This document shows, one piece after another, positions 25,354-42,723 of a stretch of DNA of 64,000 nucleotides. Positions within the stretch are counted from its first letter, which is position 1; each line of letters begins with the position of its first letter. The translations under genes and the position numbers were made by a program. Location: assembly GCA_963813155.1 (NCBI GenBank), contig CAWEYG010000003.1, positions 320,001-384,000 of the forward strand, given 5' to 3'. The notes beneath the pieces were generated by a model. It did no database searches and was not told the DNA's origin. It saw only the letters and a list, made by a program, of their open reading frames with translations. The stretch comes from an uncultured Acidobacteriota bacterium (lineage in GTDB: Bacteria; Acidobacteriota; Thermoanaerobaculia; UBA5066; DATFVB01).

Positions 25354-27762
25354 TTGATTTTCGACGAAACAACTCGCGTCTTTGAAATATCGGTCCGCGA
25401 ACTGGTGGAAGAAGACGAGAGCTTTCACCGCGTTGGCTTCGAGCGGAGCCGAAGCTGGCGGCGGCTCGCGCTCGGCGGCGAAGCTCATCGTCGAACGCTC
25501 GCATCCCGGATCGACGCCTTCCCGGGCTACCGCGGGGAGGTCTGGGTCTCCGGAGAATTCCAGACTCCGCGCTACCGCGCGATCGTCAGCGGCCGCGCCG
25601 ACGGAATCGTCGAGGGAGAAGAGGGCTCCTGGCTGATCGAGGAATACAAGACCTGCCCCTTCACCGCCGGCGGGATACCCTTCTTCCCTCCGGAGCGGGA
25701 AGCCCGGGCGCGCCGGCAGCTCCTCGTTTACGCAGCGCTCTGGGAGAAAGCGGGCCGCGGACGCGTTCGGACCGCCCTGGTCCTCGTCGACGCCGCGGGG
25801 CGCTTCGAGGAAGCGCGAACGGTCGCCTTCCGCGCGGCGGAAGTCGAAGCGGAAATCGCAGCGACCCTCGAATCGAAGTTCGACCGGCTCGAAAGACTGC
25901 GCGAAGAAAAGCGCGCGAAAGCGGAAGCCGCCGGGACGATCCGCTTCCCGTTCGCCGAGCGACGGCCGATCCAGCGGGAGATGATGGAGGCGATCGACCA
26001 CGCCGCCGCCGAGGGACGGCACCTTCTTCTCCAGAGCCCCACCGGGACCGGAAAGACGGCCGCGGCGCTGCATTCCGCGCTTTCCCAGGCGATGCGCCAG
26101 GGCAAGCGACTTGCTTTCCTGACCGCAAAGACGCTTCAACAGACCCTCGCGGTCGAAACGCTTCGAAAAATCAACGACGGCCAGTTCCGCGTTCTCTGGA
26201 TGCGCGCGAAGGAACGGATGTGCGCGAACGACAGGATTTTCTGCGACGAGGACCATTGCCGCTTCGCCCGCGACTATCCCGTGAAGATGGCTCGATCGGG
26301 GCTCGCCGACCGGCTCCTCGCGACACATCCCGTTCTCGACCCCGACTCGGTCTTCGCGAACGCGCGAGCCGAAGAGGTCTGTCCGTTCGAAGTGCAGATC
26401 GAGCTCGCGCCCCGCGCGGACGTCTTCGTCGGCGACTACAACTACGTCTTCGAGCCGGTGACGGCCCTTCGAGCCTTCGGGCCCGACGAACTGCGAAATT
26501 GCATTCTCGTCGTCGACGAGGCCCACAACCTGCCCGACCGGGCCCGAAAGATCTATTCGCCCTCGATCGACGAGGGCGACGTCGCGCTCATCGAGAATCT
26601 CGCGGCGCTCTCGGTCGGAGACGTCTGGGCCCGGCTCGGCCGCGTCCTCGCGGAGCTCCGCCAGTTCCTTCGTTCCGCGGGCGGGGAGCTGGCGGAGGAA
26701 ACCGGCGCAATCGGCGAGACCGCCTTCTCGGAGGACGATTTCGGCGACTTCCTCGCGCGGTGGGACGAGGCCATGGTGGGGTATTTCGAGTGGAAGCGCG
26801 ACACAAACGACGCCTCGGAGGACGACCCGGTGATCGGCCTTCATTTTTCCGTCGTCCGTTTCGGGGTCGTGCTCCGTTTCGCCGCGGGCAAGCCCGACTT
26901 CGCGAACGTCGTCGAGCGGACGCCGGGCGGCGTGCGCGCTTCGATGATCTGCCTCGACCCCGCGCGCGCTCTCGCGCCGATCCTCAACGCCGCGTCGTCG
27001 ACGATCCTTCTCTCCGCGACGCTCGAGCCGTTCGAGGTCCTGCGCCGCCTGACCGGCCTCTCCCGGGACCGGACCTCCGAGCTCAGCCTTCCGCCGCCGT
27101 TTCCCCGCGAGAATCGCCGCGTGCTCGTCGTCTCTTCGGTCCGGACGACGTTCACGTCTCGGGAAAAGAATTACGACAAAATCGCGGGCCTTCTCGCACG
27201 CATGGCGGACGCCCACGCCGGCAACAACCTCGCCCTGTTCCCCTCCTACAAGTTCCTGCGCGAGGTCTCCAGCCGCCTCCCGCCGATGCAGGCGCGCCTT
27301 CTGGAGCAGCGGGAGCGCCTGACCGACTTCGAGAAGAGCCAGATCCTCGCGGCGCTCGAATCGCCGCCCGAGGAGGGTCTTCTCTTCCTGGCGGTCGCCG
27401 GCGGGATGTACGCGGAAGGCGTGGACTACCCGGGAGAGAAGCTTTCGGGGGTGTTCATCGTGTCCCCATCCCTCCCCCAGGTTTCGTTCGAGCGTCAGCT
27501 CCTGAAGCGGTATTTCGACGAGCACGACGAGTCGGGTTTCGAGTTCGCGTACATCCAGCCGGGCATGACGCGCGTGATCCAGGCCGCGGGCCGGCTCATC
27601 CGCTCGGAGAGCGACCGGGGCGTCGTCGCGCTGCTGTGCCGGCGTTTCGTGGAAGAGCCGTACCAGCGATACCTCCCGCGCGATTGGTACGACGTGAGCC
27701 CGGAGGAGCTCGTGACGCGAGACCCGGAGGGAGCCGTCCGGGAGTTTTTCGCGAATGGATAG
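25354..27762 (+). CDS. DinG/XPD (Rad3) Fe-S helicase with N-terminal PD-(D/E)xK nuclease domain
   Basis: [27 protein letters not shown], Fe-S cysteines (C..C..C..CPF), DEAH, SATL and QAAGRLIR motifs. Confidence 0.9.
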
Positions 27763-28153
27763 GGGGCCCCGCCTCACCGTCGATTCGCTGACGCTCGACC
27801 CGAGCGGCCGCGTCCTGCTCATCCGCCGCGGCCGTCCACCGTTCGAGGGCCGTTGGGCCCTTCCGGGCGGCTTCGTCGAGATCGGCGAAACCGTCGAAGA
27901 GGCGTGCATCCGCGAAACCCGGGAAGAAACCGGCGTCGATGTCGAAATCGATTCGATTCTGGGCGTCTTTTCGCGCCCCGATCGCGATCCCCGGGGACAC
28001 ACGGTTTCGATCGTCTTTCGCTGCCGACTCGTCGGCGGATCGGCCGCCGGAGGCGACGACGCGGCGGAAGCCCGCTGGTTCGGCCTGGAGCAGGCGAAGT
28101 CCCTCCCGCTGGCGTTCGATCACGCCGAAATCGTCGCGCGGCTCGAGTCGTGA
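27755..28153 (+). CDS. NUDIX hydrolase
   Basis: Nudix box [23 protein letters not shown], plus RDPRGH and LAFDH. Confidence 0.93.
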
Positions 28154-29017
28154 TCGCCTTTCCGGAGTTCGGGGCGACGATTCTTCCGCACCCGGCGCGG
28201 CCCGGGATTTCCGTGGTCGCCGAGTTCGCGCTTCCGACCGGCTCCTTCAAGGACCGCGGCGCGGCCGCGGTCGTCGCGGGCGCGAAGGCATCCGCCGCCC
28301 GACGGGTCACGCTCGACTCTTCCGGCAACGCGGGCCTCGCTGTCGCGGCCGCCGCGGCCCGCGCGGGTCTCTCTTCGGTCATCCGCGTCGCCGCCTCGAT
28401 CTCCCCCGAAAAAGCGGCCCTCCTCCGCGCGACCGGCGCCCGCCTCGAGACGTATCCCACCCGGGCGGAGGCCGCCGCGGCGTGCGTCCGCGACTCGGAG
28501 TCCTACGACGCGAGCCACGTTCGAAACCCCCTTTTCCGCGCGGGCGTCGCGACGCTGGCCCGTGCCTGGATCGCAAACGCCTCGATCCCGGAGGTCGTCT
28601 ACCTGCCGGTCGGCAACGGGTCTCTCCTGCTCGGCCTGTGGGACGGCCTTCTCGCGCTTCGCGAAAGCGGCCGGATCGACGCTCTCCCGCGGCTCGTCGC
28701 CGTGCAGGCCGAGCGGTGCGCGCCGATTTCGCGCCCGGAATCTCCGGGAGACGGCGTGACGATCGCGGACGGCTGCGCGATCCTCCAACCGCCGGCGGCG
28801 GACGAGATCCGGGCGGCCATCGCGGCGAGCGGCGGCGATGCCGTGACGGCGACGGAGGAGGAGATCGAGCGGGCCTGGGTCGGAGCCTGGCGATGCTGGA
28901 TTTCCGATCGAACCGACGTCCGCGCTTGCGTTCGCGGCCCTGGCGCGCTCCGGGAATTCGGCTCCGTCGGCCGTCATCGCGACCGGATCGGGGCTCAAAG
29001 CTCCTCCCCACCGCTAG
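28150..29017 (+). CDS. Threonine synthase-like PLP-dependent enzyme (frameshifted near 28890)
   Basis: [16 protein letters not shown] and PVGNG motifs. The C-terminal EPTSA...TGSGLK lies in a shifted frame ending at TAG 29017. Confidence 0.8.
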
Positions 29018-29033
29018 AGTGAACGACGGGAGG

Positions 29034-29207
29034 CTAGGACCCCGTTTTCTCCGGAAAATTCCCCTTCAGCCACGACTTCTTGTTGCGATTCCACTCGTCT
29101 TCGGTTCGTTTCCGATTGATCTCGGCCGCGCGCGCGCGGCGCTCGTCGTCCGCGGCCGGATCGGGCGCGCCGGCGGAACCCGGGTTCTCGCTGTCCGATT
29201 CGCTCAT
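29034..29207 (-). CDS. Small hypothetical protein (57 aa)
   Basis: MSESDSENPGSAGAPDPAADDERRARAAEINRKRTEDEWNRNKKSWLKGNFPEKTGS. It fills the gap between genes, and TAGAAT lies 7 nt before the ATG. Confidence 0.55.
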   Translation of the reverse strand: MSESDSENPGSAGAPDPAADDERRARAAEINRKRTEDEWNRNKKSWLKGNFPEKTGS

Positions 29208-29217
29208 GGAGGCGATT

Positions 29218-30516
29218 CTACTCGACGAGCGCGGATCGTCGAACCGTGAGGACGGTCGTGCTGACGGCCGCGAGCAGGATGCCGTTGAAGACGAGCACCG
29301 CGGTCACCGACGTCCTCGCGGCGACGGCTCCCGCGATCACGTTTCCGAGAGGGATCGCTCCCCGGAAAGCGAGCATGTAGACCGATCCCACGCGGCCCCG
29401 CATCTCGTCCGGCACGACGGTCTGGACCAGCGACATCAACATGGTGAAAACCATCGACAGCGCGACGCCGCCGCAGAACAGCAGCGCGCAGGAAAGCGTG
29501 AAGTTCCGCGAGAGAGCGAACGCCACGATGATTGCGGCGAAAACGACCTGGGCCGAAACCGCGCGGATGCCCTTGCGCCCGGAATGCGAGAGCCGCGCCG
29601 CCGCGACGGCGCCGAGCACCGCGCCGACTCCGAAGAACGTCAGGAAGCGGCCATAGGCGCGAACGTCTTTCGCGAAGATCGCCTTCGCAAAGACCGGCAG
29701 GAACGTGGTCAACGGAAAAGCGAGAAAGCTCCCCGCGAAAGCGAGGAGAATGAGCGCCGTCAACGCCGGCGTCCGCCGGATGAAAGCCAGGCTCTCGCGG
29801 AGGCTCTGGGCCACCGGCGGATGCTTTCCCGCTTTCCGGACGAAGCGGTTCCCGATCAGCAGCAGGGCCGCGATGACGACGAAGAAGGAAAGCCCGTTGA
29901 GCCCGAAACACACGGGCGCCCCGTACTTCTGGTACGCGGCCGCCGCCAGCACCGGGCCAACGACGCGCGCGAGATTGAACTGAGTCGACTGAAGGGACAC
30001 GGCGTTCGGTACGTCCTCTTTCTCGACGAGAGTGGGGACGAGCGCCTGATAGGCGGGGCCGCCGAAGGATTGGGCGACGCCCGTCAGGAAGGAGAGCAGA
30101 AGGATGTGCCAGATGTGGACCTGGTGGAACCAGACGAGCGCGCCGAGAACGAACGCGTTCGTGAGTTGGACGATCTGGGAGCAGAGCAGGATCTTTCGCC
30201 GGTCATACCGGTCGGCGACGACTCCACCGATCAGGGAAAACAGAATGAACGGCGCGTCGCCGAGAAAGGCGTCCAGACCCAGCCAGAACGCCGAGCGCGT
30301 CATGTCGAAGATCAGCCAGTTCTGCGCCACCTCCTGCATCCAGGTCCCACAGGAGGAGGTGAACGATCCGGACCAGAGCAGGCGGTAATCCCGATACGAA
30401 AAGGCCCGAAACGTTTTTCGCCAGCCCCTCGCGTCCGCGGCCGGACTCTCCGGGATCGACGAGATCCTCGGGGATTCGTCAGCGCCGGGCGAATCGCCGA
30501 TTTCCTTGTCGCCCAT
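29218..30516 (-). CDS. MFS transporter (MFS_3/DHA3-like)
   Basis: About 12 TM segments, GGVVADRYDRRK and EMRGRV motifs. Confidence 0.92.
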   Translation of the reverse strand: MGDKEIGDSPGADESPRISSIPESPAADARGWRKTFRAFSYRDYRLLWSGSFTSSCGTWMQEVAQNWLIFDMTRSAFWLGLDAFLGDAPFILFSLIGGVVADRYDRRKILLCSQIVQLTNAFVLGALVWFHQVHIWHILLLSFLTGVAQSFGGPAYQALVPTLVEKEDVPNAVSLQSTQFNLARVVGPVLAAAAYQKYGAPVCFGLNGLSFFVVIAALLLIGNRFVRKAGKHPPVAQSLRESLAFIRRTPALTALILLAFAGSFLAFPLTTFLPVFAKAIFAKDVRAYGRFLTFFGVGAVLGAVAAARLSHSGRKGIRAVSAQVVFAAIIVAFALSRNFTLSCALLFCGGVALSMVFTMLMSLVQTVVPDEMRGRVGSVYMLAFRGAIPLGNVIAGAVAARTSVTAVLVFNGILLAAVSTTVLTVRRSALVE

Positions 30517-30550
30517 CTTTCGTATAACGTCCTCGCCCGGGAGAATATAC

Positions 30551-33265
30551 GTGAAACACCTTCGACGGTTTCGAATCCTTCTCGGATTTTTCCTCTTCTG
30601 CGGGAGCCTCCAGGCTCAGGCTCCCGACCCGGGCGCGGATCACGGCGCCGCCGCGCTGCACAGCGATCTCCTTCGCCTCCGCACGACCGCGAGCGTTCTG
30701 CAGGTCACCGCGCATCCCGACGACGAAGACGGAGGCCTCCTGACTCTCCTGTCCCGCGGACGCGGCGTCCGAACCGGCCTCGTCTCCCTCACGCGCGGCG
30801 AAGGAGGGCAGAACAAAATCGGCTCGGAGCTCTTCGACGAGCTCGGCCTCACGCGAACCGAGGAGCTGCGCGCTTCCGCCGCTTACTACGGCGTTTCGCT
30901 CTTCTTCACCCGCGCGGTCGACTACGGCTACTCCAAGACGATTTCCGAGGCGCTCGAGAAGTGGCAATTCTCCGAACGCGACGGCGGGCCGGTCGTCGAG
31001 GACCTCGTCCGGGTGATCCGGAGGTTTCGCCCCGAAGTCCTCGTCGCGCGCTTCAGCGGAACTCCGCGCGACAGCCATGCGCACCACCAGGCGTCCGCGG
31101 TCCTCGCGCGGAAGGCCTTTGCGGAGGCGGGGAATCCCTCCGCATTCCCCGAGCTTCTGCGGGAAGGTCTTGCTCCCTGGCAGCCGAAGAAGCTCTACAT
31201 CGGCATCCTCCGGGCCAACGAGGAATGGACGGTTTCCGAGGATGTCGGCGTTTACGACCCCCTCCTCGGGCTCTCCTACTCCCAGCTCGCCTGGGAAGGG
31301 CTCGCCCACCAGCGCACCCAGGGGGTCGGGCAGGTGCGGCCGGATCCCGGGTCGCGAACCGTCTATTACAAGCGCATCGACGGAACACCGCTCGCCGCCG
31401 TGGGGTCCGACGGAAAGATCGAGAATCCTTTCCACGAGGGGCCCGCGAAGCCGGAGAAGGATTTCTTCGACGGCCTCGACGAATCCGTTCCCGGAATCCG
31501 GGGCCGCCTCGCCAGCCTCGCGGGCGACGAGCTCGCCCGCGACCTCGGCGGACTCGAGAACGCCGCGCAGGAAGCCCTGAGGCGGTTCGACGCAACGCAT
31601 CCCGAGGCCTGCGCGGAGCCTCTCGCCCGGGGCCTCCGGCTCGCCCGCGAGATTCGACGGAAGATCGATTCCTCGCCGGCTCCCGCGGCGGCCCGAAGCG
31701 ACGCGGCCTTCCTGCTCGACGAAAAGATCGCCGAATTCCAGGACGCGCTGAACGATTCCCTCTCTCTCGTGCTGCTCGCCCGCGTCGAGCCGGAGAAAGA
31801 CCCGGGCTCCCCTTTTCCCGGTTTCCGCTTCGCGGTCGACACGATGAAAACGGCCGCCGCCGGCGAATCCTTTCCCGTCGCCGTGACGCTCGTCAACCGC
31901 TCTCCCCTCGCCGTGAAGGTCGTCGCGGCGGAGCTCCTCGCGCCGGCGAGATGGAAAGTCGAGCTGTCGGAGGGACCGCCTCCGAAAAGCGTCGATCCGA
32001 ATGGATCGGCCCGGTCGCTCTTCCGCGCGGGCGTGGCGCCCGGCGCGCCCCCGACGGCTCCATACTGGCACCGGCGAAGCGTGGAAGACTCGTTGTACGA
32101 GATCGACGACCCTCGCCTCACGGGCGATCCGCGCCCGGCCTACCCGCTGACGGCGCGCATTCGATACGAGTTCGCGGGCACCGAAGGGTCGATCTCTCGA
32201 ACCGTCGCGACGCGCACCGTCGATCCGCTCCGCGGGGAGCTGCCGCGGGACCTCGCCGTCGAGCCCGCCGTCTCCCTCCGCGTTCGTCCGCCGCTCGCCA
32301 TCGTTCCCCTCGCGAAAGCGGGCGAACGGAACATCGCATTCGAGATCGAGGTGACGAACCATGCCGCCGGAAAGCAGGACGGGAAGCTTCAACTCGCGCC
32401 TCCCGCCGGCTGGAAAGTGCCCGAACCCGTCGCGTTCTCGCTCGCGAAAGAAAACGACTCCGACCGCCTCGGGGCCACGCTCGCGGTCCCGAGGGGAGCG
32501 AAGGAAGGAACGTACAGCCTGAAGGCGGCCGCCGGCCCGTTCGACCGCACGCTCGACATCCTGGAACATCCCGACATCGCGCCGACGTATTTTCTCAAGC
32601 CCGCCGAAGCGAAAATCGAGGTTGTCGACGTGGCGGTTCCGGACAATCTCACGGTCGGCTACGTCCGCGGACCGGAGGATTCGATTCCGGAGTTTCTGCA
32701 GCAGCTCGGGATCCACGTCGTATTCCTCGCGCCCGAAGACCTCGAAAAGGGGAACCTCTCCGTCTTCCCGACGATCGTCACCGGGCCGCGGGCGTACGAC
32801 GTGCGCGACGACCTGAAGCGCTTTCACCGCCGGCTCATGGAATACGTCCGGAACGGGGGCCGCCTCGTCGTCCAGTACAACACGAACGTGCGCACCTTTC
32901 GGGAGTTCCCGTTCTCCGCGTCCTTTTCCCCGGATACCCGGCGAATCACCGTGGAAGACTCGCCGGTCGAGATCCTTCATCCGGAGGACCCGGTCTGGAA
33001 CTTTCCGAACAAGATCACTCTCGCGGACTTCCAGGGCTGGGTCCAGGAGCGGGGCCTCTACTTTCCCGACCAGTGGTCGAGCGACTACACGCCGCTCGTC
33101 AAGATGACCGACCCGGGCGAGGAGCCGCTCCTCGGCGGCACGCTCCTCGCGCACCCCGGGAAAGGAACCTACATTTACACGGCGCTCTCGTGGTTCCGCG
33201 AGCTGCCGGAGGGAGTCCCGGGAGCGATCCGGATCTTCGTGAATCTCATCTCGCCCTCGAAGTAG
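30551..33265 (+). CDS. Exported PIG-L/LmbE family deacetylase with Ig-like and GATase-like C-terminal domains
   Basis: Signal peptide, AHPDDED, TRGEGGQN, H.HH and GWVQERGLY motifs. Confidence 0.9.
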   Translation: MKHLRRFRILLGFFLFCGSLQAQAPDPGADHGAAALHSDLLRLRTTASVLQVTAHPDDEDGGLLTLLSRGRGVRTGLVSLTRGEGGQNKIGSELFDELGLTRTEELRASAAYYGVSLFFTRAVDYGYSKTISEALEKWQFSERDGGPVVEDLVRVIRRFRPEVLVARFSGTPRDSHAHHQASAVLARKAFAEAGNPSAFPELLREGLAPWQPKKLYIGILRANEEWTVSEDVGVYDPLLGLSYSQLAWEGLAHQRTQGVGQVRPDPGSRTVYYKRIDGTPLAAVGSDGKIENPFHEGPAKPEKDFFDGLDESVPGIRGRLASLAGDELARDLGGLENAAQEALRRFDATHPEACAEPLARGLRLAREIRRKIDSSPAPAAARSDAAFLLDEKIAEFQDALNDSLSLVLLARVEPEKDPGSPFPGFRFAVDTMKTAAAGESFPVAVTLVNRSPLAVKVVAAELLAPARWKVELSEGPPPKSVDPNGSARSLFRAGVAPGAPPTAPYWHRRSVEDSLYEIDDPRLTGDPRPAYPLTARIRYEFAGTEGSISRTVATRTVDPLRGELPRDLAVEPAVSLRVRPPLAIVPLAKAGERNIAFEIEVTNHAAGKQDGKLQLAPPAGWKVPEPVAFSLAKENDSDRLGATLAVPRGAKEGTYSLKAAAGPFDRTLDILEHPDIAPTYFLKPAEAKIEVVDVAVPDNLTVGYVRGPEDSIPEFLQQLGIHVVFLAPEDLEKGNLSVFPTIVTGPRAYDVRDDLKRFHRRLMEYVRNGGRLVVQYNTNVRTFREFPFSASFSPDTRRITVEDSPVEILHPEDPVWNFPNKITLADFQGWVQERGLYFPDQWSSDYTPLVKMTDPGEEPLLGGTLLAHPGKGTYIYTALSWFRELPEGVPGAIRIFVNLISPSK

Positions 33266-33278
33266 CGCTCAGGTTTCC

Positions 33279-34619
33279 ATGACCGAGCTCAAGCGCGAAA
33301 TCGGACTCTGGCGCGGCGTCGCCCTGAACATGATCGACATGGTCGGAATCGGCCCGTTCATCACGATGCCCTTGATCCTGTCCGCGATGGGCGGGGGCCG
33401 GGCAATGCTCGCGTGGATCCTCGGCGCCCTGCTCGCGATCTCCGACGGGCTCGTCACCGCGGAGCTCTCGGCGGAGCTGCCGGCGTCCGGCGGCTCGTAC
33501 GTGTTCCTTCGGGAGGCGTACGGACCCGCGAAGTGGGGGCGGCTCGTCTCATTCCTGTTCCTTTTCCAGATCCTCATCTCGGCGCCCCTGTCGATCGCCT
33601 CCGGCTCGAAGGGATTCGCCAGCTACCTCAAGTTCGTCTTTCCCGGGATTACCTGGAGCGGCGGCGCGATCGCCGCGCTCGCGGCGCTCCTGCTGACAGC
33701 GCTCCTGTTCCGGAAGATCGGCTCGATCGGGAAACTCTCGATCCTCCTCTGGGCGGGCGTGCTCGCGACGATCGCGATCGTCATCGGGGCCGGGCTTCCG
33801 CATTTCCGTCTCGCGGCGGTCGAGTTCTGGAACGCTCCACGATTCGACGCGCGAGTCGGGTGGTCGGGGCTGGGAGTCGCGATGATCTACGCCGTGTACG
33901 ATTACCTCGGCTACTACAACATCTGCTACATCGGCGACGAGATTCACGAGCCGGAAAAAACGATTCCACGCGTTATCGTGATTTCGATCGTCGCGATCGC
34001 CGTTCTCTACCTGCTGATGAACGCGTGCCTCGTGTCCGTACTGCCGATGAAACAGGCGATGACCTCCGAGCATGTCTTCTCCGACTACCTCGCGGTGCTC
34101 CTGGGCTCCCGCTGGGCGAGGGCCGTCTCGGTCCTGATTCTCTGGACCGGCCTGGCGTCGATTTTCTCCCTCATGCTCGGCTACTCCCGGATCCTCTACG
34201 CCGCGGCGCGGGACGGGAACTTCTTTTCGTTCTTTTCCCGCCTCCACCCGACCGGCGCGTTTCCGTATGTCGCCCTTCTCGCTCTCGGGATCGTCGGAGC
34301 GCTGTTCTGCCTGCTTCCCCTTCCGACGGTCATCAAGTCGATCCTCTCCATCCGCGCGATCATTCCTTTCATGGCTCAGATCATCGGGTCCGTCGTGATC
34401 CGCCGCCGCAACCCGAACGGGAAACGTCCTTTCAAGATGTGGCTCTACCCCGTTCCCGTGTTCGTCGCGCTCGGCCTGTGGGCGTACATCGTGGCTTCGC
34501 CGGAAAAAGGCTTCCAGGTAGCCGGAGCGGTCGTCATGTCGGCCGGCGTCGTGTTCTTCCTGGGCCGCTCGCTGCTGTTGAAGCAGTGGCCGTTCCGCAC
34601 CGGCGCGAGAGCCCGCTAA
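33279..34619 (+). CDS. APC family amino acid permease
   Basis: DMVGIGPFIT, AEL...P.SGGSY and RPFKMWLYP motifs, about 12 TM segments. Confidence 0.9.
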   Translation: MTELKREIGLWRGVALNMIDMVGIGPFITMPLILSAMGGGRAMLAWILGALLAISDGLVTAELSAELPASGGSYVFLREAYGPAKWGRLVSFLFLFQILISAPLSIASGSKGFASYLKFVFPGITWSGGAIAALAALLLTALLFRKIGSIGKLSILLWAGVLATIAIVIGAGLPHFRLAAVEFWNAPRFDARVGWSGLGVAMIYAVYDYLGYYNICYIGDEIHEPEKTIPRVIVISIVAIAVLYLLMNACLVSVLPMKQAMTSEHVFSDYLAVLLGSRWARAVSVLILWTGLASIFSLMLGYSRILYAAARDGNFFSFFSRLHPTGAFPYVALLALGIVGALFCLLPLPTVIKSILSIRAIIPFMAQIIGSVVIRRRNPNGKRPFKMWLYPVPVFVALGLWAYIVASPEKGFQVAGAVVMSAGVVFFLGRSLLLKQWPFRTGARAR

Positions 34620-34633
34620 CCGGGTTGGCCACA

Positions 34634-34664
34634 AAAGAAAAGCGCCCCTGTTGGGGCGCTTTTC
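34634..34664. terminator. Bidirectional intrinsic terminator
   Basis: GAAAAGCGCCCC-TGTT-GGGGCGCTTTTC hairpin with A/T tracts, between convergent genes. Confidence 0.85.
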
Positions 34665-34683
34665 GTGGAACCGTTCGACCGGA

Positions 34684-35289
34684 TCAGAGGCCGGGTTTGC
34701 CAGAGAGGCCAGGCTTCCCAGAGAGCCCCGGCTTGCCGGACAGTCCAGGCTTGCCCGAGAGGCCAGGCTTGCCCGAGAGGCCGGGTTTGCCCGAGAGGCC
34801 GGGTTTGCCAGAGAGGCCAGGCTTGCCAGAGAGGCCAGGCTTCCCAGAGAGCCCAGGCTTGCCAGAGAGGCCAGGCTTGCCAGAGAGGCCAGGCTTGCCA
34901 GAGAGGCCAGGCTTCCCAGAGAGCCCCGGCTTGCCAGAGAGCCCAGGCTTGCCTGAGAGGCCGGGTTTGCCAGAGAGGCCAGGCTTCCCAGAGAGCCCCG
35001 GCTTGCCAGAGAGGCCAGGCTTCCCGGAGAGCCCCGGCTTGCCAGAGAGGCCAGGCTTCCCGGAGAGCCCCGGCTTGCCGGACAGTCCAGGCTTGCCCGA
35101 AAGGCCGGGCTTACCCGAAAGGCCCTGCTTGCTGGAGAAGGTCGAGCCGGTGTGGCTCGAGTCGGGAGCCGAAAGCGCCGGGTTGTTTCCCAGGTTTCCG
35201 ACCCGGATCTCGCCCATGTCTTTGCCCGTTCCCGCCTTGATTTTCGCCATCTGCTCTTCAGTCAACTTGATTCGAACATCGTTTGCCAT
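34684..35289 (-). CDS. Leader plus (SGKPGL)x24 repeat protein: candidate multi-core RiPP precursor or collagen-like protein
   Basis: GGGAGG RBS then ATG at 35289. 201 aa, invariant hexapeptide encoded by synonymous codons, followed by a terminator. Confidence 0.85.
34687..35124. repeat. 18-bp coding tandem repeat, about 24 copies
   Basis: Units such as CCAGGCTTGCCAGAGAGG vary only at third-codon positions of the minus-strand frame. Confidence 0.95.
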
Positions 35290-35421
35290 TTTGTCCTCCC
35301 TTTCGTTAGCTATCTCACATCGCAAGGGCCGCGCCACCGCGATCCGGCGAAGTCCGGCCCATCAACCCGAACAAAATACAGGCCAAATCCCAGGCCAGCA
35401 CATCGGCTGCAAACAAGCGGA

Positions 35422-35446
35422 GTCAAAATTTGACCGGCAATTTTGA
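35422..35446. promoter_or_regulatory. Palindromic putative operator
   Basis: TCAAAATT-N8-AATTTTGA (35423-35446) overlaps GTCAAA-A-TTTGAC (35422-35434) in an AT-rich divergent intergenic region. Confidence 0.45.
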
Positions 35447-35539
35447 TCGAGACGGGGAAAAATTCTCCCTCTTCAGCCCGCAAGAGATCTTCGAGTGGCT
35501 CGGAACCCCCGAATCGTGAATGCGGTGTAAACTGCACGA

Positions 35540-35680
35540 ATGTCACAAGCAAACGGAGACAAGGCTCGCTTCGCCAAGGCGAAGAAGAAGAGATTACGGC
35601 ATCGCGAGAACATGAAGAAGATCCTGTCCCCGCCTCCCGAGCGACCGGCTCGATCCGCGCATTCGCGCCCTTCCAAGTAG
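35540..35680 (+). CDS. Small basic protein (46 aa)
   Basis: MSQANGDKARFAKAKKKRLRHRENMKKILSPPPERPARSAHSRPSK. TAAACT lies 6 nt before the ATG, and the stop is 7 nt from the convergent SDR stop. Confidence 0.6.
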   Translation: MSQANGDKARFAKAKKKRLRHRENMKKILSPPPERPARSAHSRPSK

Positions 35681-35687
35681 AAAGAGC

Positions 35688-36473
35688 TCAGCGCCGGGGT
35701 ACCAGCCCCGAAGGCAGGGAGATTCCCCCGTCGATCGTGAGACACGTTCCGGTCACGTAATCGGCGGCGGAAGAGCAGAGGTAGAGGATCGCGTCCGCCA
35801 CCTCTTCCAGCCGGGCGAGCCTTCGCGCGGGAATCGTCTTCTTCAGCTTCTCCTGCGTCTCGGGGTCCGCGAAGTTCAGGTTCTGGGACGCGCCTTCGGT
35901 CACCATGATCCCGGGAGCGATCGCGTTCACCCGGATTCCCCGCGAGCCCCATTCCGCGGCGAGCGTCTTCGTGATCGAGAGCACTCCCGCCTTCGCCGCG
36001 GCCGAATGGACGACGCCCGGCATCCCCGTTTCGGCATACGTCGCGACGACGTTCACGAGAGCTCCATGTCCCCTCGAAAGCATCCGGCGTCCCACGATCG
36101 ACGAACAGAACCAGGTTCCGTGGAGAACGATTTCCACGACCGCGCGAAATCCGTTCGGCGTCAGCTGCTCCGCCGGCACCAGGAAGTTCCCCGCGGCGTT
36201 GTTGACGAGGATGTCGAGGGGGCCGAGCTCCTTTTCGATGCGTTCGACCGCGGACTCGACGCCTTCCGGCGAGCGGACGTCGGCGGCGACCGGAAGAACA
36301 GCCGTCCCCGCCTTCCGGATCTCCGCGGCAGCCGCTTCGAGCCGCTCGGCCGATCGCGAGAGAATCGCGACGCGGGCGCCCGACTGCGCGAATGCGAGCG
36401 CCGTCGCCTTGCCGAGCCCCGACCCGCCCCCCGTCACGAGGACCGTTTTGGATTCGAATTCCCGATTCGTCAC
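35688..36473 (-). CDS. SDR family oxidoreductase (2,4-dienoyl-CoA reductase-like)
   Basis: TGGGSGLG, NNAAGNF and HSAAAKAG motifs (His at the usual catalytic Tyr position). Confidence 0.88.
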   Translation of the reverse strand: MTNREFESKTVLVTGGGSGLGKATALAFAQSGARVAILSRSAERLEAAAAEIRKAGTAVLPVAADVRSPEGVESAVERIEKELGPLDILVNNAAGNFLVPAEQLTPNGFRAVVEIVLHGTWFCSSIVGRRMLSRGHGALVNVVATYAETGMPGVVHSAAAKAGVLSITKTLAAEWGSRGIRVNAIAPGIMVTEGASQNLNFADPETQEKLKKTIPARRLARLEEVADAILYLCSSAADYVTGTCLTIDGGISLPSGLVPRR

Positions 36474-37606
36474 GATTCCTCCTCGTTCCCGCCCCTGTCC
36501 GGGGGCGCCTCGAGAGATGCCAGTGTGCCGGCCGCGATCGCCTCCCGGATCCGGGTCATCCAGGCCAGATAGAAATACACGTTGTGCTGGGAAATCAAGA
36601 CCGGCGCCGAGATGTCCTTGAGAACGAACAGGTGCCGGAGGTAGGCGCGCGAGTGACGGCGGCACACGGGACAGTCGCAATCGGGGTCGAGCGGCTCGAA
36701 ATCCGAAGCAAATCGCGAATTCTTGATCGTGACGCTTCCCCGCGACGTGAAGGCGTGGCCCATTCTCCCGTTTCGCGTCGGCAGAACGCAGTCGAAAAGA
36801 TCGATCCCCTGCCGGACGGCGCGGAGGAGGTCCGACGGCGTCCCGACCCCCATGAGGTACCGGGGCTTTTCGCCCGGAAGCGCCGCGCAGGAAATCTCGA
36901 CCGTCTCCGAGATTTCGGCCTTCGATTCCCCCACGGCGACGCCCCCGATCGCGTACCCGGGAAAATCCATCGGCACGAGTTCCTCCGCGCAGCGCCGCCG
37001 CAGGTCCGCCCGGCCGCCCCCCTGCAGGATGCCGAAAAGAGCGCCCGGCCCGCGCCACGCGTCCCGACATCGCCGCGCCCAGCGGATCGTCCGCGAGACC
37101 GCGGCTTCCAGCTCGGCTTCCGGCGCGGGAAGGCCGGGGCACACGTCCAGGCACATCGCCACGTCGGTTCCGAACGCGGACTGCAGTTCCATCGCGAGCT
37201 CCGGGGTGAGGAACCGGGGAGAGCCGTCGAGATGCGAGCGAAATTCGACGCCCTCTTCGCGGATCTTCCGGCTCTTCTCGAGCGAGAGGACCTGGAACCC
37301 TCCCGAGTCGGTCAGCAACGAGCGGTCCCAGCCGATGAAGGCATGAAGGCCGCCGGCGCGCCGGATCCCCTCGAGCCCCGGCCGCAGCATCAGGTGATAC
37401 GTGTTCGCGAGGACGAGCTGGCACCCCCATTCCTCGAGCCGGTCGAAGGGAACGCCCTTCACGGCCCCGAGAGTGCCGACCGGCATGAACGCGGGGGTCT
37501 CGACCGCGCCCCTCGACAGCGACAGACGGCCACGGCGCGCCGCCCCGTCGACCGCGAGAATTTCGAAAAATCGATCGGGGTTTTTCAAGAATCGCGAGCC
37601 TAGCAT
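36470..37606 (-). CDS. tgt: tRNA-guanine transglycosylase
   Basis: TPAFMPVGT, NTYHL, TDSGGFQ, PRYLMGVG and FDCVLPTR motifs, CDCPVC zinc site. Confidence 0.96.
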   Translation of the reverse strand: MLGSRFLKNPDRFFEILAVDGAARRGRLSLSRGAVETPAFMPVGTLGAVKGVPFDRLEEWGCQLVLANTYHLMLRPGLEGIRRAGGLHAFIGWDRSLLTDSGGFQVLSLEKSRKIREEGVEFRSHLDGSPRFLTPELAMELQSAFGTDVAMCLDVCPGLPAPEAELEAAVSRTIRWARRCRDAWRGPGALFGILQGGGRADLRRRCAEELVPMDFPGYAIGGVAVGESKAEISETVEISCAALPGEKPRYLMGVGTPSDLLRAVRQGIDLFDCVLPTRNGRMGHAFTSRGSVTIKNSRFASDFEPLDPDCDCPVCRRHSRAYLRHLFVLKDISAPVLISQHNVYFYLAWMTRIREAIAAGTLASLEAPPDRGGNEEES

Positions 37607-37673
37607 GGAAGCTTTTCAATGCCTTGACGGCTGATAGCGGGGGTGGTACGTTCGCCCCCGCTTTGGGGGGTGG

Positions 37674-37983
37674 ATGTCAAATCTCGGAAAAAAATTCGAA
37701 TGCTTCAACTGCCGGGCGAAGTTTTACGACCTCGGCAAGCCGGAAGCGATCTGCCCCAAATGCGGGGCCAACCAGAAGGACGCGAAGAACGCCGACGAGG
37801 CGGCCGGCCGCTCCGCGCCCGAGACGGATGGCTCCCATCGTCGTCGCGCCCGAAGAAGTCAACGAATTCGAAGACCAGCCGCAGGAAGAAGAGGCTGCTC
37901 CCGGGTACGGCGAAGAAGAAGAAACCGATGACGAGGAAGCCCCTCTCGAGATCCACGAACGGGAAGAAGAAGAAGAGTTCTGA
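37674..37983 (+). CDS. FYDLN-acid (TIGR02300-like) zinc-ribbon protein (frameshifted near 37806)
   Basis: LGKKFECFNCRAKFYDLGKP..CPKCG. The acidic tail is in another frame, ending at 37983. Confidence 0.85.
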
Positions 37984-38437
37984 ACCGCGCGGACCCGCCT
38001 ACCTGGGGCTCGGAAGCAATCTCGGAAACCGAACGAAGCACCTCAAAGACGCCATCCGCGAGGTCGGCAGGATCGCCCGCGTCGTTTCCGTCTCTCCGTT
38101 TCACGAAACCGAGCCCGTCGGCTTCCGGCGACAGCCCCGCTTCCTGAACGCCGCGATGAAGATCGTCACGTCCCTCCCGGCGAGGGAGCTCCTCGAACGG
38201 ACCCAGGCCATCGAGGCGCGCCTGGGAAGGGTGAGGTCCTTTCGCAACGGGCCGCGGGTCATCGACATCGATTTGCTCGACGTGCGCGGGCAGTCCCTCC
38301 GCACGAAATCGCTCACACTGCCGCACCCGAGGATGCAGGAGCGTCGTTTCGTCCTCGAGCCCCTCGCCGAGATCGCGCCCCGCTGGCGGCACCCCGAGCT
38401 CGGCAAGACCGCCCGGCAGCTGATCGGAGAGTTGTAA
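37928..38437 (+). CDS. folK: 2-amino-4-hydroxy-6-hydroxymethyldihydropteridine diphosphokinase
   Basis: YLGLGSNLG, FLNA, GPRVIDIDLL and LPHPRMQERRFVL motifs. Start uncertain. Confidence 0.92.
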   Translation: MTRKPLSRSTNGKKKKSSEPRGPAYLGLGSNLGNRTKHLKDAIREVGRIARVVSVSPFHETEPVGFRRQPRFLNAAMKIVTSLPARELLERTQAIEARLGRVRSFRNGPRVIDIDLLDVRGQSLRTKSLTLPHPRMQERRFVLEPLAEIAPRWRHPELGKTARQLIGEL

Positions 38438-38443
38438 GGGCTG

Positions 38444-39358
38444 CTACTTCCAGGCCTCGAGGTCGCGGCGCGCGTCCGCCTGAACCCGCAAGTCCTCGAT
38501 GAGGTGATCGGGGCGCGGGGTGGCGGCGACGACCTTCTTCAGGATCTGGACAGCCTCCTCGCGCTGGTCGGTGTTCTCGCGGAGGCCCTCCGCGAGAAAG
38601 AAGAGATTCACGAAATTCTCGGGCGCGATCTCGACCGACTTTCGAAGGTAACGGACGCCCGCGTCGCGGTCGACCCAACCCGTGACGAAAAGGATCTTGG
38701 GCGACACGCAGTGGAGCCTTCCGAGCACGCGATAGCCGCCGGCGTCCTCGAGCTTCGGGTCGATGGCGATCGTCGTTCGCGCCTGGTCCCGGATTTTCGC
38801 CGCGACCCCCTGGCGGGCCGCCTGCAGCCTTCCGTGCACGAGGGCCCACTGGCCGGAAGTCACGGACGCCCAGAAGAACGTCTCGCCGGCCGTCTGGTCC
38901 CCGGCGAGGGCCGAACCGAGCTGCGCCGGCTCCATCGTTCGACCGTTCTGCGCGGACCGCCGCCCCGCCGTGTCGCGCTCGATCGCGATCGCCTCGTCCG
39001 CGATCGGCAGGGCCCTCTCGTACAGAGCGGCTTTCTGCTCGTCGTTCAGTCCCGTGTACTCCGCTTTGAAGTAGGTCGACCGAAGGTATTTCCATCGGTC
39101 TTCCACGTCGCTTCGATTTTTCTTGAGAGCCGCGGAATACGACTCGAGCGACGCGTCGATCTCGATCGACGACGCGACATCCGCCTGCCGGCCTTCCGCG
39201 CGCCGCTGGTAGTGAACGTCGCCTTCTTTCGCCTGCGCCTCCAGGTGGAGATTCTCCATCGCCCGCTCCTGCGGGGACGGCAGCGTCGGCTGCGAGGGAG
39301 GAGTCGTCGTGTGGATCTGGGCAAGGACGCAAAACACGACTGCAGACACGATGTGCAT
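38444..39358 (-). CDS. Exported TPR-like helical protein
   Basis: Signal peptide, helical repeats (A..IDP..EDAGGYRVLGRLH), AAGGA RBS. Confidence 0.7.
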   Translation of the reverse strand: MHIVSAVVFCVLAQIHTTTPPSQPTLPSPQERAMENLHLEAQAKEGDVHYQRRAEGRQADVASSIEIDASLESYSAALKKNRSDVEDRWKYLRSTYFKAEYTGLNDEQKAALYERALPIADEAIAIERDTAGRRSAQNGRTMEPAQLGSALAGDQTAGETFFWASVTSGQWALVHGRLQAARQGVAAKIRDQARTTIAIDPKLEDAGGYRVLGRLHCVSPKILFVTGWVDRDAGVRYLRKSVEIAPENFVNLFFLAEGLRENTDQREEAVQILKKVVAATPRPDHLIEDLRVQADARRDLEAWK

Positions 39359-39420
39359 TTCAGTTCCTTCCGGAATCGATTATAGAGGACGCCGTGCTAG
39401 ACTGACTCAGGAGCTGATCC

Positions 39421-39720
39421 ATGAGCGACGAAAAGCCGGCCGAGTTCAAGATGACGATCGACGAACCGACGTCCGCCGGCCACTACGTGAATTTCGCGAA
39501 CATTTTGCACAACCCCACGGAATTCGTGTTCGACTTCGGGCGCATCGTTCCGGGGCGGCCCGACGTGAAGATCCACGCCCGTATCCTGACGACGCCCGTT
39601 CATGCAAAACAGTTCCTCAAAGCCCTCACGCACAACATCGGCCTCTACGAGCAGCAGTTCGGAGCGATCCCCGAATACGCGCCGGGACAGATGCCCGCGC
39701 CGGAGCCCCAGACCAACTAA
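39421..39720 (+). CDS. DUF3467 family protein
   Basis: G.YVN...I.H...EFVFDF, RI..TP.HAK and YEQQFG.I motifs. AGGAG RBS. Confidence 0.88.
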
Positions 39721-40802
39721 CGGCCCGCCGCGAGAATTCCGCCTCCGAGAATCCGCTCCCCACGAGAGAACACGGCCGCCTGGCCCGGAGAGACGGCCCG
39801 TACCGGCTCGTCGAAGACGATTCGGGCCGTGTCGCCCGCATCGGGGTGAATCGTCGCGGACGATTCCCGGCCCCGGTGGCGGATTCGAACGTCGGCGCGA
39901 ACGGGAGCGCCGGGCGAGGGGGGAGACGCCCACCGGACGTTCACCACGTCCGCTTCGCTCGACATCAGCTCCGACGCTTCGCCGAGGCGGATTGTGCCGG
40001 TTTCGGGGTCGATCCGAGTCACGTACCGGCGGCCGGACGATGCGACGCCGAGGCCGCGCCGCTGCCCCACGGTATAACGATAGATGCCGCCGTGCTCGCC
40101 GATCGTGCCGCCGGAGGAATCGACGAAATCCCCGTGGGCGGGCAGCGCGAAGCCGAGCGAGCCGGCCTGCCTTTCGATGAAATCGCCGACCGATTCCTTC
40201 GCCGGAACGAAACAGATCTCCATCGATTCGTCCTTGTCGGCCGTCGGCAAGCCCGCGCGGCGCGCCGCTTCGCGAACTTCGCTCTTCGTCAGCTCTCCGA
40301 CCGGAAAGATCGCCGCCTCGAGCTGATCCGGCGTCAGGTCATAGAGAAAATACGACTGGTCCTTTTCCGGATCCGCGGCCTTCCGAAGCACCGCCCGGCC
40401 CTTTTCGTCGCGCCCGATTCTCGCGTAGTGCCCGGTCGCGACCTTCTCGCAGCCGAAGGCGGCCGCCCGGTCGCGCAGAGCCCGAAACTTCACCTTCGTG
40501 TTGCATTCCGCGCAGGGAATCGGCGTCCGGCCCGCGACGTACTCCCCGACGAAGGGGACGACCACGTTTTCTCGGAACTCCTCCTCGAGGTCGAGAACAT
40601 AGTGAGGAATCCCGAGCGTCCACGCAACCTTGCGCGCGTCGGAAAGGTCGTCCAGCGTGCAGCAGCGCCCGCTGCGCCCCTTCTCGGCGCTGTGGTCCCA
40701 CAGCTGCATCGACAGACCCACCACTTCGTGGCCCTGCTGCTGGAGGAGGAGGGCCGCGACCGAGGAGTCGACGCCGCCCGACATCGCGACCGCGATTCTC
40801 AT
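39717..40802 (-). CDS. mnmA: tRNA 2-thiouridine(34) synthase
   Basis: [37 protein letters not shown] and PGQAAV motifs. Confidence 0.96.
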
Positions 40803-40815
40803 CGGTGGCCGGGAA

Positions 40816-41430
40816 TCATATCGTCTCGCCGGTGACGATCAGCATGAGCGTGGTGCCGCCGACCTCGAACTCGCCATAATTCTCGAGGTCCGCCCTTTCG
40901 ATTCGCCCCCCGCTGACGAACGTGCCGTTCGTCGAAGCGAGATCCACGAGAGTCACGATGTCGTCAGCGATTTCGACGGCGGCGTGCTCGCGCGAAATCT
41001 CCGAGTCGGAGAGCGCAACGTCGGCTCCCGTACGCCCGATGACAACGCGAGGCTTCTCGATGGGGAAATTCCGGCCCGAATCCGCGCCCGAGATGACCGC
41101 GAGCGAGAGTTTCTTTCCGGCGGGGAGCCTGAGATTCTGCGCCGGCATGGCCGCCCGGAGCTTCGCCAGGACGTACTGCTTCGTCGTTTCGCTCGGAGGG
41201 GGGCTGTCGTGCTCGGGCCTTCTCATCTGGGTCGTATCGCCCGCGCCGACCGGCGCCGGATTCACGACCGGCGGCTCCGGCCGCGTTTCGGAGCGCAGGG
41301 CGACCTCGGGGTTGTGCACCTCGAAGACGGTCTCGCACTTCGTGCAGCGGATTCTCTTCGACGCCTTGCCGTCGAACCGCGACTCCTCGTAGCGATACTT
41401 CGCCCCGCACGAGGCGCACGCCACGATCAT
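40816..41430 (-). CDS. Zinc-ribbon (MJ0042-type) plus FHA domain protein
   Basis: CASCGAKY...RCTKCETVF, then GR, SREHA and STNGTF FHA motifs. Confidence 0.9.
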
Positions 41431-41514
41431 GACCGAAGTCCCTTCGCCGTTGTATTCCGTGTCATCGTGTCGAGAGGCCCCTGGGAGGCATTCTCCCATC
41501 GGCCGCGCGGGAGA

Positions 41515-42646
41515 TCAAGCGTGGACCCGCTCGAGCGCTCTCGCGAGAGCATCGATCACTCGCGGAATTTCCTCCTCGCGGTTGTCCTTCCCGAACGAGA
41601 AACGCAGGGTGGACTTCGCCTCTTCGCGGGTCGCGCCGAGGGCAAGGATCGCGGGCGACGGCTTGCAGCGTCCCGGACGAGCACGCGGACCCAACCGACA
41701 CCGCGATGCCCGCAAGGTCGAGAGAGATCAGCAGGCCCTCTCCCGAGAAACCCGGGAACGCGACCGCCGACGTGTTCGGAAGGCGGAGCGACTCCCGGCC
41801 CCAGATCCTCGCGCCCTCGAACCGGGCGGCCAGCTCCGATTCGAACCGGTCGCGCAGGCGGCCGATACGCTCCCTCGATTCCGACCCCTCCTCGGCGATC
41901 AGCCGGGCGGCCTGGCCGAACCCCACGATTCCCGCGACGTTCTCCGTTCCGCCGCGCCGGCGGCGCTCCTGGCCGCCCCCCGGGAAGAGGGGCTCCAGAT
42001 CGATTCCCTTTCGGGCGTAGAGCGCGCCCGTTCCCTTCGGGCCGTAGATCTTGTGCGCGGAGAGGGAGAGGAGATCGACCCCGAGCCGGCGGACGTCGAT
42101 CGGAATCCGGCCGAGCGCCGACACCGCGTCGCTGTGGACGACGGCCCCGCGCTCCTTCGCCATCGGGGAGATCTCCGCGAGCGGGAAGACCGTCCCGTAC
42201 TCGTTGTTCGCCGCCATTACCGAAACGAGGGCCGCGGCCCCTTCGAGGGCCTTCCGCACGGAATCGGGGTCGAGACGGCCGGTCCGGTCGACGGCGATCA
42301 CGCGAGTCGGATACCCTTCGGCGGCGAGCCGGCGAACGTACTCCGACACGGCCGGATGTTCGACCGCCGTCGTCACGATCGCCGAACCCCTTTCGAACGA
42401 CCTCGCGAGCGAGAGGGCGAGCGCGTCGCTTTCGGTCCCCCCGGAGGTGAAAATGATCTCTTCGGCGGCCCCCGCTCCGATCAGGGCGCCGACCTGCTCG
42501 CGGGCCTCCTCGACGGCCCGGCGGGCTGCCCGTCCGGCCGAATGGACCGAAGACGGGTTTCCCCACGAACCTCTCAGGAACGGGTCCATCGCGGCCGCGA
42601 CGCGGGGGTCCACGGGCGTTGTTGCGTTGTGGTCCAGGTAGATCAC
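41515..42646 (-). CDS. iscS: Cysteine desulfurase (frameshifted near 41663)
   Basis: IYLDHNATTP, FTSGGTE, SAHKIYGPKG and GSACSS motifs. The C-terminal LRFSFG is in a shifted frame. Confidence 0.9.
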
Positions 42647-42723
42647 GAAGAGGATTCTAACTTCTCCAAAAAAAAGGAATAGTGTGTATTTTGACCGCGT
42701 TAGGATGCAATATCGAGGCTGGA

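Follow-up and report, generated by a model that had tools for sequence, protein, structure and literature searches.

The closest described counterparts of the system reported here are found among the RiPPs, peptides that ribosomes synthesize and that are modified post-translationally. A preprint on daptides describes a RiPP recognition element (RRE) fused N-terminally to a site-2 protease, MpaP, which removes the leader. YydH/LiaK (NF058609), another M50-type membrane protease, matures the small ribosomal peptide YydF. We analyzed a stretch of 64,000 nucleotides (nt) from an uncultured Acidobacteriota soil bacterium of the class Thermoanaerobaculia (assembly GCA_963813155.1, contig CAWEYG010000003.1, positions 320,001 to 384,000), hereafter called the window, which carries on its minus strand a gene (34684..35289) for a protein of 201 amino acids (aa) with an N-terminal head and a collagen-like array of SGKPGL repeats. 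This gene is a paralogue, in an orphan position, of the gene that encodes the cargo of a seven-gene cassette, in which the head family is obligatorily linked to a protease combining a predicted RRE, an M50 peptidase and a HlyD-type adaptor (RRE-M50-HlyD), to two more adaptors and to a signalling set. We lean towards reading the window gene as an extra cargo gene transcribed with sigma-54, whose head would be bound by the RRE and removed by the M50 peptidase, whose tail would pass to a HlyD-type envelope assembly, and which would share its regulation with the cassette.

The likeness to daptide loci is twofold. In the daptide protease MpaP/DapP (NF041824), an RRE fold at the N-terminus precedes an M50 membrane protease that carries the HExxH motif, as predicted for the cassette protease, and the protease gene adjoins a small gene for a precursor whose leader is conserved (MpaA there, the cargo gene here). 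However, the cassette protease is additionally fused to a HlyD-type periplasmic adaptor, and the cassette is controlled by a sigma-54 two-component pair and lacks the oxidoreductase, aminotransferase and methyltransferase that modify daptides. The cargo of 100-200 aa with its tandem-repeat tail also differs from the daptide precursor, a short helical peptide ending in Thr. From YydH/LiaK the cassette differs in having neither a radical-SAM epimerase nor an ABC exporter. The family shares with RiPP precursors a conserved leader and a core that is hypervariable across homologues, whereas the conserved cassette genes include no core-modifying enzyme, although an unlinked enzyme is possible. Neither the head family nor an RRE-M50-HlyD cassette with repeat cargo was found described in a search of the literature outside subscription journals. 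The cassette represents known parts of leader-guided peptide processing in an undescribed combination. The new elements are the collagen-like copy at the orphan position, together with its orthologues, the promoter motif found in 83/83 upstream segments, the synteny and co-occurrence counts, the test for an RRE fold, and the statistics on tail length and selection.

The window protein opens with 51 aa of N-terminal sequence, continues with the degenerate unit SSKQGL and ends in 24 perfect SGKPGL units, the stop codon following directly after the last one. The head, or leader (residues 1-41; 35167..35289), is followed by a linker (residues 42-51; 35137..35166) that is variable and unconserved among family members, and by the repeat tail (34687..35136), a (Gly-X-Y)n run. 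Tandem Repeats Finder described the array by a period of 18, 24.8 copies, 85% matches and 0% indels (score 572). The perfect units are encoded by 12 distinct 18-nt versions, and all differences between these are synonymous. Measured against the consensus unit, 42 nucleotide differences are synonymous and 2 are nonsynonymous, the latter two falling in the degenerate first unit; the ratio of nonsynonymous to synonymous rates (pN/pS) of the array is 0.02. Selection acts on the exact SGKPGL unit. The Pfam Collagen model (PF01391) matched the array with an E-value of 2.9e-27 and 94.6 bits against a cut-off of 27.2, reflecting 48 uninterrupted Gly-X-Y triplets with Pro at half of the Y positions. 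No hydrophobic stretch resembling a transmembrane (TM) segment or a signal peptide was found in the 201-aa protein by a Kyte-Doolittle scan. A ribosome-binding site, GGGAGG, lies 6 nt 5' of the ATG (35295..35300, minus strand), and a GGGAGGACAA(A/G) string occurs 5' of the ATG in all three copies of the gene in the source genome. An intrinsic-terminator-like hairpin with a T-run behind it is located 3' of the stop codon (34637..34664, minus strand); 8 of its 12 pairs are G-C. An earlier note on this DNA, made from the letters alone, had already read the ribosome-binding site, the 201-aa open reading frame (ORF), the 24 units flush to the stop, the gene's own terminator, the lack of a Sec signal peptide or TM segment, and the perfect Gly-X-Y run, and had taken the synonymous differences between units as a sign of selection on the exact peptide; all of this is borne out for the assembled sequence.

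The unit number is that of the assembly. Short-read contigs of a public soil run enter the array from either side (34400-34715 and 35063-35695), none of them spans it, and only fragments of 43-120 nt fall inside. Parts of the stretch are contained in 19 public-run records, of which only X1 contains half of the sampled words. A scan of positions 34300-36000 found 0 sigma-70 promoter-like sites. The window ORF is a genuine gene with a conserved sigma-54-type promoter motif, described below. That it is instead a slipped GC-rich microsatellite or an assembly artefact, open by chance, can hardly be entertained: the array is unspanned by any independent read or contig and the other two copies in the source genome shift frame inside their arrays, but the head, ribosome-binding site, sigma-54 motif and terminator are all conserved, an orthologous locus exists in the genome of a second species, both array junctions appear in the independent soil run, and every difference among the perfect units is synonymous.

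Searching 1.84 billion cluster representatives with residues 1-51 (phmmer, E≤1e-3) returned 74 matches, 10 of them with E≤1e-10 and the best E-values reaching 2.9e-12. Two of these, P0033 and P0052, were excluded as unrelated multi-repeat proteins. The 72 real representatives share the first ~42 residues and then continue with unrelated tandem repeats, such as NLSAK, KSPSV, QELSA, DDSLK, ARETARVN or AAKTAAPR. We also scanned one genome per prokaryotic species, which gave 126 pattern matches, 110 of them confirmed; the locus counts given here refer to the best 80 of the 110. The family belongs to one order of Thermoanaerobaculia, all loci stemming from Thermoanaerobaculia or Acidobacteriota metagenome-assembled genomes except L032, on an 8.4-kb contig in an 'Acidithiobacillales' bin. 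L032 carries a complete Thermoanaerobaculia-type cassette in the bin of another phylum, and a misbinned contig is the simplest view.

Head and tail statistics were computed for 68 complete, unbroken members, 6 of 74 having been dropped (L013, L016, L031, L080, L006 and L010). Very long or oddly ending 'cargo' ORFs in L013, L016, L031, L080, P0006 and P0014 look like run-on translation of GC-rich sequence after a frame change within the array. Nine residues are invariant in 68/68 members (M1, V5, L9, T10, Q13, I17, T21, G22 and E27), and the window protein keeps all nine. Column entropy exceeds 3 bits from residue 42 onwards, and conservation ends at around residue 41. AlphaFold2 (AF2) models the head as a strand (residues 5-8), a helix (11-21) and a second strand (27-30), with a predicted local distance difference test score (pLDDT) of 75-86 over residues 1-30. 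The head alone matched nothing significantly in Pfam (one weak match, E 0.23) and nothing in NCBIfam, and a protein atlas search with it gave no usable match.

The earlier note had regarded the N-terminal part as a leader before a repeated core, had proposed asking whether homologues keep it while the repeat varies, had compared it with the double-glycine leaders recognized by C39 peptidase-ABC exporters, and had considered a collagen-like protein as the alternative. The head family upholds the leader reading, since residues 1-40 are kept where the repeat has changed, and it does not uphold the other two. The likeness to leaders of C39 peptidases and peptidase-containing ABC transporters (PCATs) amounts to a superficial L-[ST]-x-x-[EQ]-x-x-x-I pattern. 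However, there is no conserved Gly-Gly, Gly-Ala or Gly-Ser at the matching site, where positions 19-20 are E/A/S followed by A (56/68) or G (10/68) and T21 and G22 are invariant instead, and the head stays conserved for 20 residues beyond it. The cassette contains no ABC transporter, and the C39 family PF03412 had 0 matches in the source genome, which is 90.8% complete, while it was found in 7/14 control genomes.

As to the collagen-like family, homologues with the same head bear repeats other than Gly-X-Y, which occurs in 4/80 loci; this is the finding that the note had named as refuting a collagen. Among the 80 loci, SGKPGL-type units were found only in L006, L007, L008 and L010, and in addition in P0004 and the paralogues of the source genome. 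The remaining 76 loci carry other units, with periods including 4, 5, 8, 9 and 10 residues, which cannot be Gly-X-Y. Over the whole family, the repeat period ranges from 4 to 22 residues and the unit sequence differs between genomes. Well-phased arrays of other loci have pN/pS values of 0.00-0.25. The pooled value is higher, 0.36 (1220 synonymous and 1158 nonsynonymous differences), because it includes badly phased arrays: automatic phasing failed on arrays with indels, frame drift or compound units, where pN/pS exceeded 1 and is uninterpretable.

The tails contain no Cys and no Trp and consist of 26% Ala, 12% Arg, 11% Ser, 8% Lys and 7.5% Thr. Their net charge is cationic in 55 of the 68 members, acidic in 10 and neutral in 3, several units of the acidic tails lacking any basic residue, such as LSAQD, QDLSAN and ADTSIES. 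The tail length has a median of 96 aa and an interquartile range of 86-116, which the 159-aa window tail exceeds. Length does not follow unit length (Spearman 0.035, p 0.81, n=51), and the number of units drops as the units become longer (rho -0.78). No residue type is present in every unit across the family. Together, these tail statistics argue against a single modification chemistry common to all tails and speak, mildly, for a role of the tail as a whole rather than for the release of units. SGKPGL is this genus's version of a freely changing tail with a length near 100 residues; since the sequence varies freely between genomes while the length is held, Gly-X-Y is incidental to the family. 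We also observed that many units contain [L/M]-[S/R/K]-[A/G] (LSA, LRA, MRA, MKA, LSG), and that many members have a short non-repeat C-terminal end (…SSV, …ASF, …GDV, …NDE).

The intact cassette of the source genome occupies C3:345-9210, on the same contig as the window copy and 350 kb away from it. Pfam and NCBIfam typing identified, upstream of the cargo gene, a HlyD-type adaptor (267 aa), a histidine-kinase core (238 aa) closest to PrsK, and a sigma-54 activator that bears a receiver domain. Fourth of the seven genes is the cargo gene itself, the copy at C3:3430. Downstream and on the opposite strand follow the 742-aa fusion of an M50 peptidase with a HlyD-type adaptor (C3:4230-6452, intact), a GAF-GAF-HlyD protein of 808 aa, and a STAS protein. 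The kinase and activator resemble the PrsK/PrsR pair of the PEP-CTERM/exosortase system, PrsK being the best NCBIfam match of the kinase (E 1.6e-40), and there, as presumably here, a sigma-54 activator drives a low-complexity cargo for which a dedicated membrane protease is needed. However, the match reaches 139 bits against a cut-off of 300, the 238-aa core lacks the membrane part of PrsK, the sorting signal is N-terminal here, and neither a PEP-CTERM signal nor an exosortase is present.

We counted synteny by tblastn with the cassette proteins of the source genome within ≤6 kb from the head (n=80 loci). The activator lies near the cargo gene in 77/80 loci, all but L006, L007 and L081, and the adaptor part of the M50-HlyD protein in 70/80, that is in 70/71 loci with >400 nt of downstream flank, L006 being the miss. 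The GAF protein was found in 66/80 and the STAS protein in 63/80 loci, and gene order and strands are constant. ORF clustering over 46 fully flanked loci revealed no further gene conserved in more than about half of them. Upstream genes for DndB-like and LemA proteins, an M48 peptidase and EAL proteins (≤20-23/46 loci) look like plain synteny. Of 151 sampled genomes of the class, 30 have both the head and the protease and the other 121 have neither (3/3 in family f1, 17/17 in f2, 8/16 in f3 and 1/35 in f5). Leaving out G004 and G104, both flagged as unpublished, the count is 28/149 for head and protease alike.

The window copy is off-cassette, not located between a sigma-54 activator and an RRE-M50-HlyD gene. 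L006 and L007 are orthologues of it. The genome of a second species that carries L006 is collinear with positions 25198-44760 of the window at 86-88% nucleotide identity, and L006 has no cassette within 10 kb either; this collinearity indicates that the orphan position is inherited rather than an accident of assembly. The array of L006 is longer, with ~31 units before the frame drifts. The name 'orphan', given in the earlier note, applies to position only: the gene stands outside a cassette, but its presumed partners, the processing genes, are on the same contig, as that note had supposed in placing the enzymes elsewhere. Of the enzymes that the note had suggested looking for near homologues, the cassette has a protease with a predicted RRE fold, and its conserved genes include no modifying enzyme. 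In the source genome at large, YcaO and C39 gave 0 matches, Pfam PqqD gave 1, unlinked and on contig C6, and SPASM gave 6, none of them in the window or the cassette.

The source genome contains two further cargo copies (C3:3430 and C4:119843), with leaders 69-87% identical and the unit shared. The copy at C3:3430-4330 (L003/L004) has ~27 SGKPG[LM] units, one frame change and 11 more units, and ends in GKPGL-stop. L006 and L010 likewise lose frame in or near their arrays, which may be real or a long-read indel error in G/C runs. A second, divergent whole cassette lies at C4:116900-125500 (L005). Its protease, 64-78% identical to the intact one, is broken into four frames, the activator is fragmented, and the cargo array shifts frame many times; the flanking genes are intact. 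Either L005 is a paralogous cassette in decay, or the consensus is poor at this place. In the 151-genome sample, more than one cargo copy occurs only in G076, in G104, a same-genus genome with two head copies, and in the source genome. In G076 two tandem cargo genes precede one protease gene (C75:17678-18600).

The M50 half of the cassette protease has as its best NCBIfam match the daptide intramembrane metalloprotease NF041824 (E 2.3e-34), followed by NF058609 (E 2.2e-11). Among 50 orthologues, H242, E243, H246 and D345/G346 are invariant, the last two within an N-x-x-P-x-x-x-x-D-G stretch; we take these motifs to be the metal ligands of a site-2 protease. We modeled residues 1-140 by AF2 from an alignment with the 50 orthologues. 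Residues 41-130 were predicted with a pLDDT of 81-90 as three strands followed by three helices. Comparison with the PDB by Foldseek gave RRE domains or RRE-containing RiPP enzymes as all ten best matches, including TbiB1 with leader peptide, PqqD, CteB, a lasso B1 protein and TruD; stand-alone RRE targets scored TM 0.67-0.75, and the probabilities were 0.99-1.00. The N-terminus of the protease thus models as an RRE fold. A crude hydropathy scan, which cannot fix topology, indicates five strong TM-like segments, and by the positive-inside rule the RRE would be cytoplasmic and the adaptor periplasmic. A complex prediction for protease residues 1-480 with the 51-aa head, both given as alignments, scored 0.00 and counts neither way.

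The promoter motif is shared between the orphan and the cassette copies. A TGG[CT]-N7-TTGC motif, which matches the sigma-54 consensus, is present 43-81 nt 5' of the ATG in 80/80 loci and in 3/3 copies of the source genome (83/83), compared with 0.7% of 20000 random 150-nt intervals from the same loci. In the window, the -24/-12 element TGGCGCGGCCCTTGC (35322..35336, minus strand) ends 32 nt 5' of the ATG. The cassette copies have paired GGTTGA-N-TCAACC-type dyads ~100-130 nt upstream of the -24 element, and GGTTGAAA or its complement occurs in 36/83 upstream segments. Upstream of the window gene there are two neighbouring A/T-centred dyads, GATCAAAATTGCC and GGTCAAATTTTGAC (35422..35448, minus strand), as a putative activator binding site. 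The paired dyads suggest that the cassette activator binds there.

Taken as a mechanism, the reading that we prefer would run as follows. Residues ~1-40 of the head, in the predicted strand-helix-strand form, would act as the recognition module and be bound in the cytoplasm by the RRE of the protease. The intramembrane site-2-type M50 metalloprotease would then cut off the head somewhere after residue ~40, and the hydrophilic, Cys-free repeat tail would be passed into or across the envelope via an assembly of the three HlyD-type proteins, to act outside the cell. Transcription of the orphan and of the cassette copy alike would be turned on by the kinase and the sigma-54 activator, by way of the promoter and dyads that the two genes have in common.

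Several observations weigh against this reading. The protease scores far under the equivalog cut-offs of NCBIfam, 119.1 bits against 300 for NF041824 and 43.9 against 225 for NF058609, and at 119.1 bits it is a relative rather than a member of NF041824. The Foldseek E-values of the RRE matches are weak, the best being 5.7e-3 and none ≤1e-3. Pfam PqqD misses the N-terminal domain of the protease in the source genome at E≤0.01, and among the matches listed a precomputed PF05402 match exists for 1/120 orthologues. Co-occurrence of head and protease is expected anyway for adjacent genes gained and lost together; since kin are also not independent, it supports the link but does not prove it. The only sign that the cassette activator acts on the orphan in trans is motif similarity. 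The RNA library yielded a single 102-nt contig on 34686-34764, with a repeat-like loose end, which may derive from a paralogue or from DNA. Finally, Pfam and NCBIfam typing and ORF clustering of the cassette found no recognizable ATPase, no resistance-nodulation-division (RND) or major facilitator superfamily (MFS) pump and no outer-membrane factor, and it is here that an export model is weakest.

The best-surviving alternative, which we regard as unlikely, is the same model with another fate of the tail: the tail would be cut at each unit boundary, and ~24 SGKPGL peptides, or a derivative, would be released as a signal or antimicrobial, which the adaptor-kinase pair of the cassette might sense, closing an autoinducing loop. 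In cyanobactins, microviridins and fungal repeat proteins processed by Kex2, one leader is combined with many copies of a short unit, and peptide quorum-sensing loci such as agr bring together, like this cassette, a precursor, a membrane protease, a kinase and a response regulator. As in such multi-core precursors, units are conserved within one precursor and variable between taxa. The strong purifying selection on the unit here and in well-phased arrays elsewhere, the array ending flush at the stop, the unit shared by the source-genome paralogues despite their diverged leaders, and the combination of conserved leader, hypervariable core, RRE and dedicated protease, which is the layout of RiPP or pheromone precursors, all speak for it. 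However, no inter-unit processing motif, macrocyclase, ATP-grasp or Kex2-like enzyme was found here, and neither a modifying enzyme nor a second protease is conserved in the cassette. The genome lacks a YcaO match and has its 6 SPASM matches outside the window and the cassette. Tail length stays constant irrespective of unit length, as fits a length-constrained whole tail, units of 4-22 residues share no residue for cleavage or modification, ten tails are net acidic, and many members have a short C-terminal end that is no repeat.

A more doubtful proposal takes the cassette as an envelope system of a new kind, gated by the leader and working without a recognizable ATPase, in which either (GKPGLS)n is exported in this genus as a polycationic minimal collagen and assembles outside the cell, or ~24 hexapeptide signals close a sigma-54 autoinduction loop. 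The RRE protease would capture the head-tagged polypeptide, remove the head and feed the genome-specific repeat polymer through a conduit of the three adaptors; in the autoinduction variant, the adaptor-kinase pair would sense the hexapeptide and the orphan copy would add precursor.

Similarly improbable is an intracellular role, in which the protein would be a cytoplasmic polycationic nucleoid- or RNA-binding protein or a regulator, its level set by M50 proteolysis. Regulated M50 proteolysis is known from SpoIVFB acting on pro-sigma-K, and cationic tails rich in Ala, Arg, Lys, Ser and Thr, like the 55 counted above, resemble those of histone-H1 type. The STAS, GAF and kinase signalling parts of the cassette and its lack of a recognizable transporter would also suit such a role. 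However, 10/68 tails are net acidic and 3/68 neutral, the cassette has three conserved proteins of periplasmic adaptor type, and the fast, genome-specific turnover of the tails would be more usual in surface or secreted proteins.

Very unlikely, in our view, is a minimal bacterial collagen, (GKP-GLS)24, selected as the triple helix of a structural or adhesive fibre. The 48 unbroken triplets, half of them with Pro in Y, lie well above the Pfam Collagen cut-off, as do the Gly-X-Y runs of Scl1/Scl2 and Lcl. Partial NCBIfam matches to Scl2/SclB, Scl1/SclA and Lcl exist, and the unit is retained in the orphan, the cassette copies and the nearest relatives (L006, L007, L008, L010 and P0004). However, the NCBIfam adhesin scores are 70.7 against 325, 40.6 against 400 and 34.8 against 500, and 76/80 family loci have units other than Gly-X-Y. 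Collagen-like proteins need a trimerization domain and a secretion signal or anchor. The window protein has only its 51-aa head beside the repeat, and its sequence contains no signal peptide, no anchor and no globular trimer-nucleating domain, unlike Scl1/Scl2 and Lcl. Its tail carries a net charge of +24 with zero acidic residues, which is expected to disfavour a homotrimer. Only for this genus is such a fibre conceivable; it is no trait of the family as such.

If the reading that we prefer holds, the logic of leader peptides, with an RRE and a site-2-type leader peptidase, would reach unmodified repeat polypeptides of 100-200 residues and would be coupled to HlyD-type adaptors and sigma-54 control. 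As a natural experiment, the family pairs one fixed head with dozens of unrelated tails of similar length, each kept exact by selection, and recognition by the machinery and the requirements on the tail thereby become directly testable. For annotation, the Pfam Collagen match is misleading in proteins of the head family, and a precursor that appears to be an orphan may have its processing genes hundreds of kilobases away.

Some minor observations concern the surroundings of these genes. At L081 the cargo gene, the sigma-54 motif and the adjacent protease are kept and other genes lie upstream, where a candidate gene for an extracytoplasmic function (ECF)-type sigma factor (L081:956-1360), recognized by eye, replaces the adaptor, kinase and activator genes. 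A protein atlas search with the protease returned look-alike clusters with M50, PqqD and adaptor-barrel domains, most commonly from Pseudomonadota and Planctomycetota, which we regard as leads only. The neighbours of the window copy are an amino-acid permease gene and a short-chain dehydrogenase/reductase (SDR) gene. The permease gene, ending at 34619, converges with the cargo gene, ending at 34684, and the hairpin located between them could serve both.

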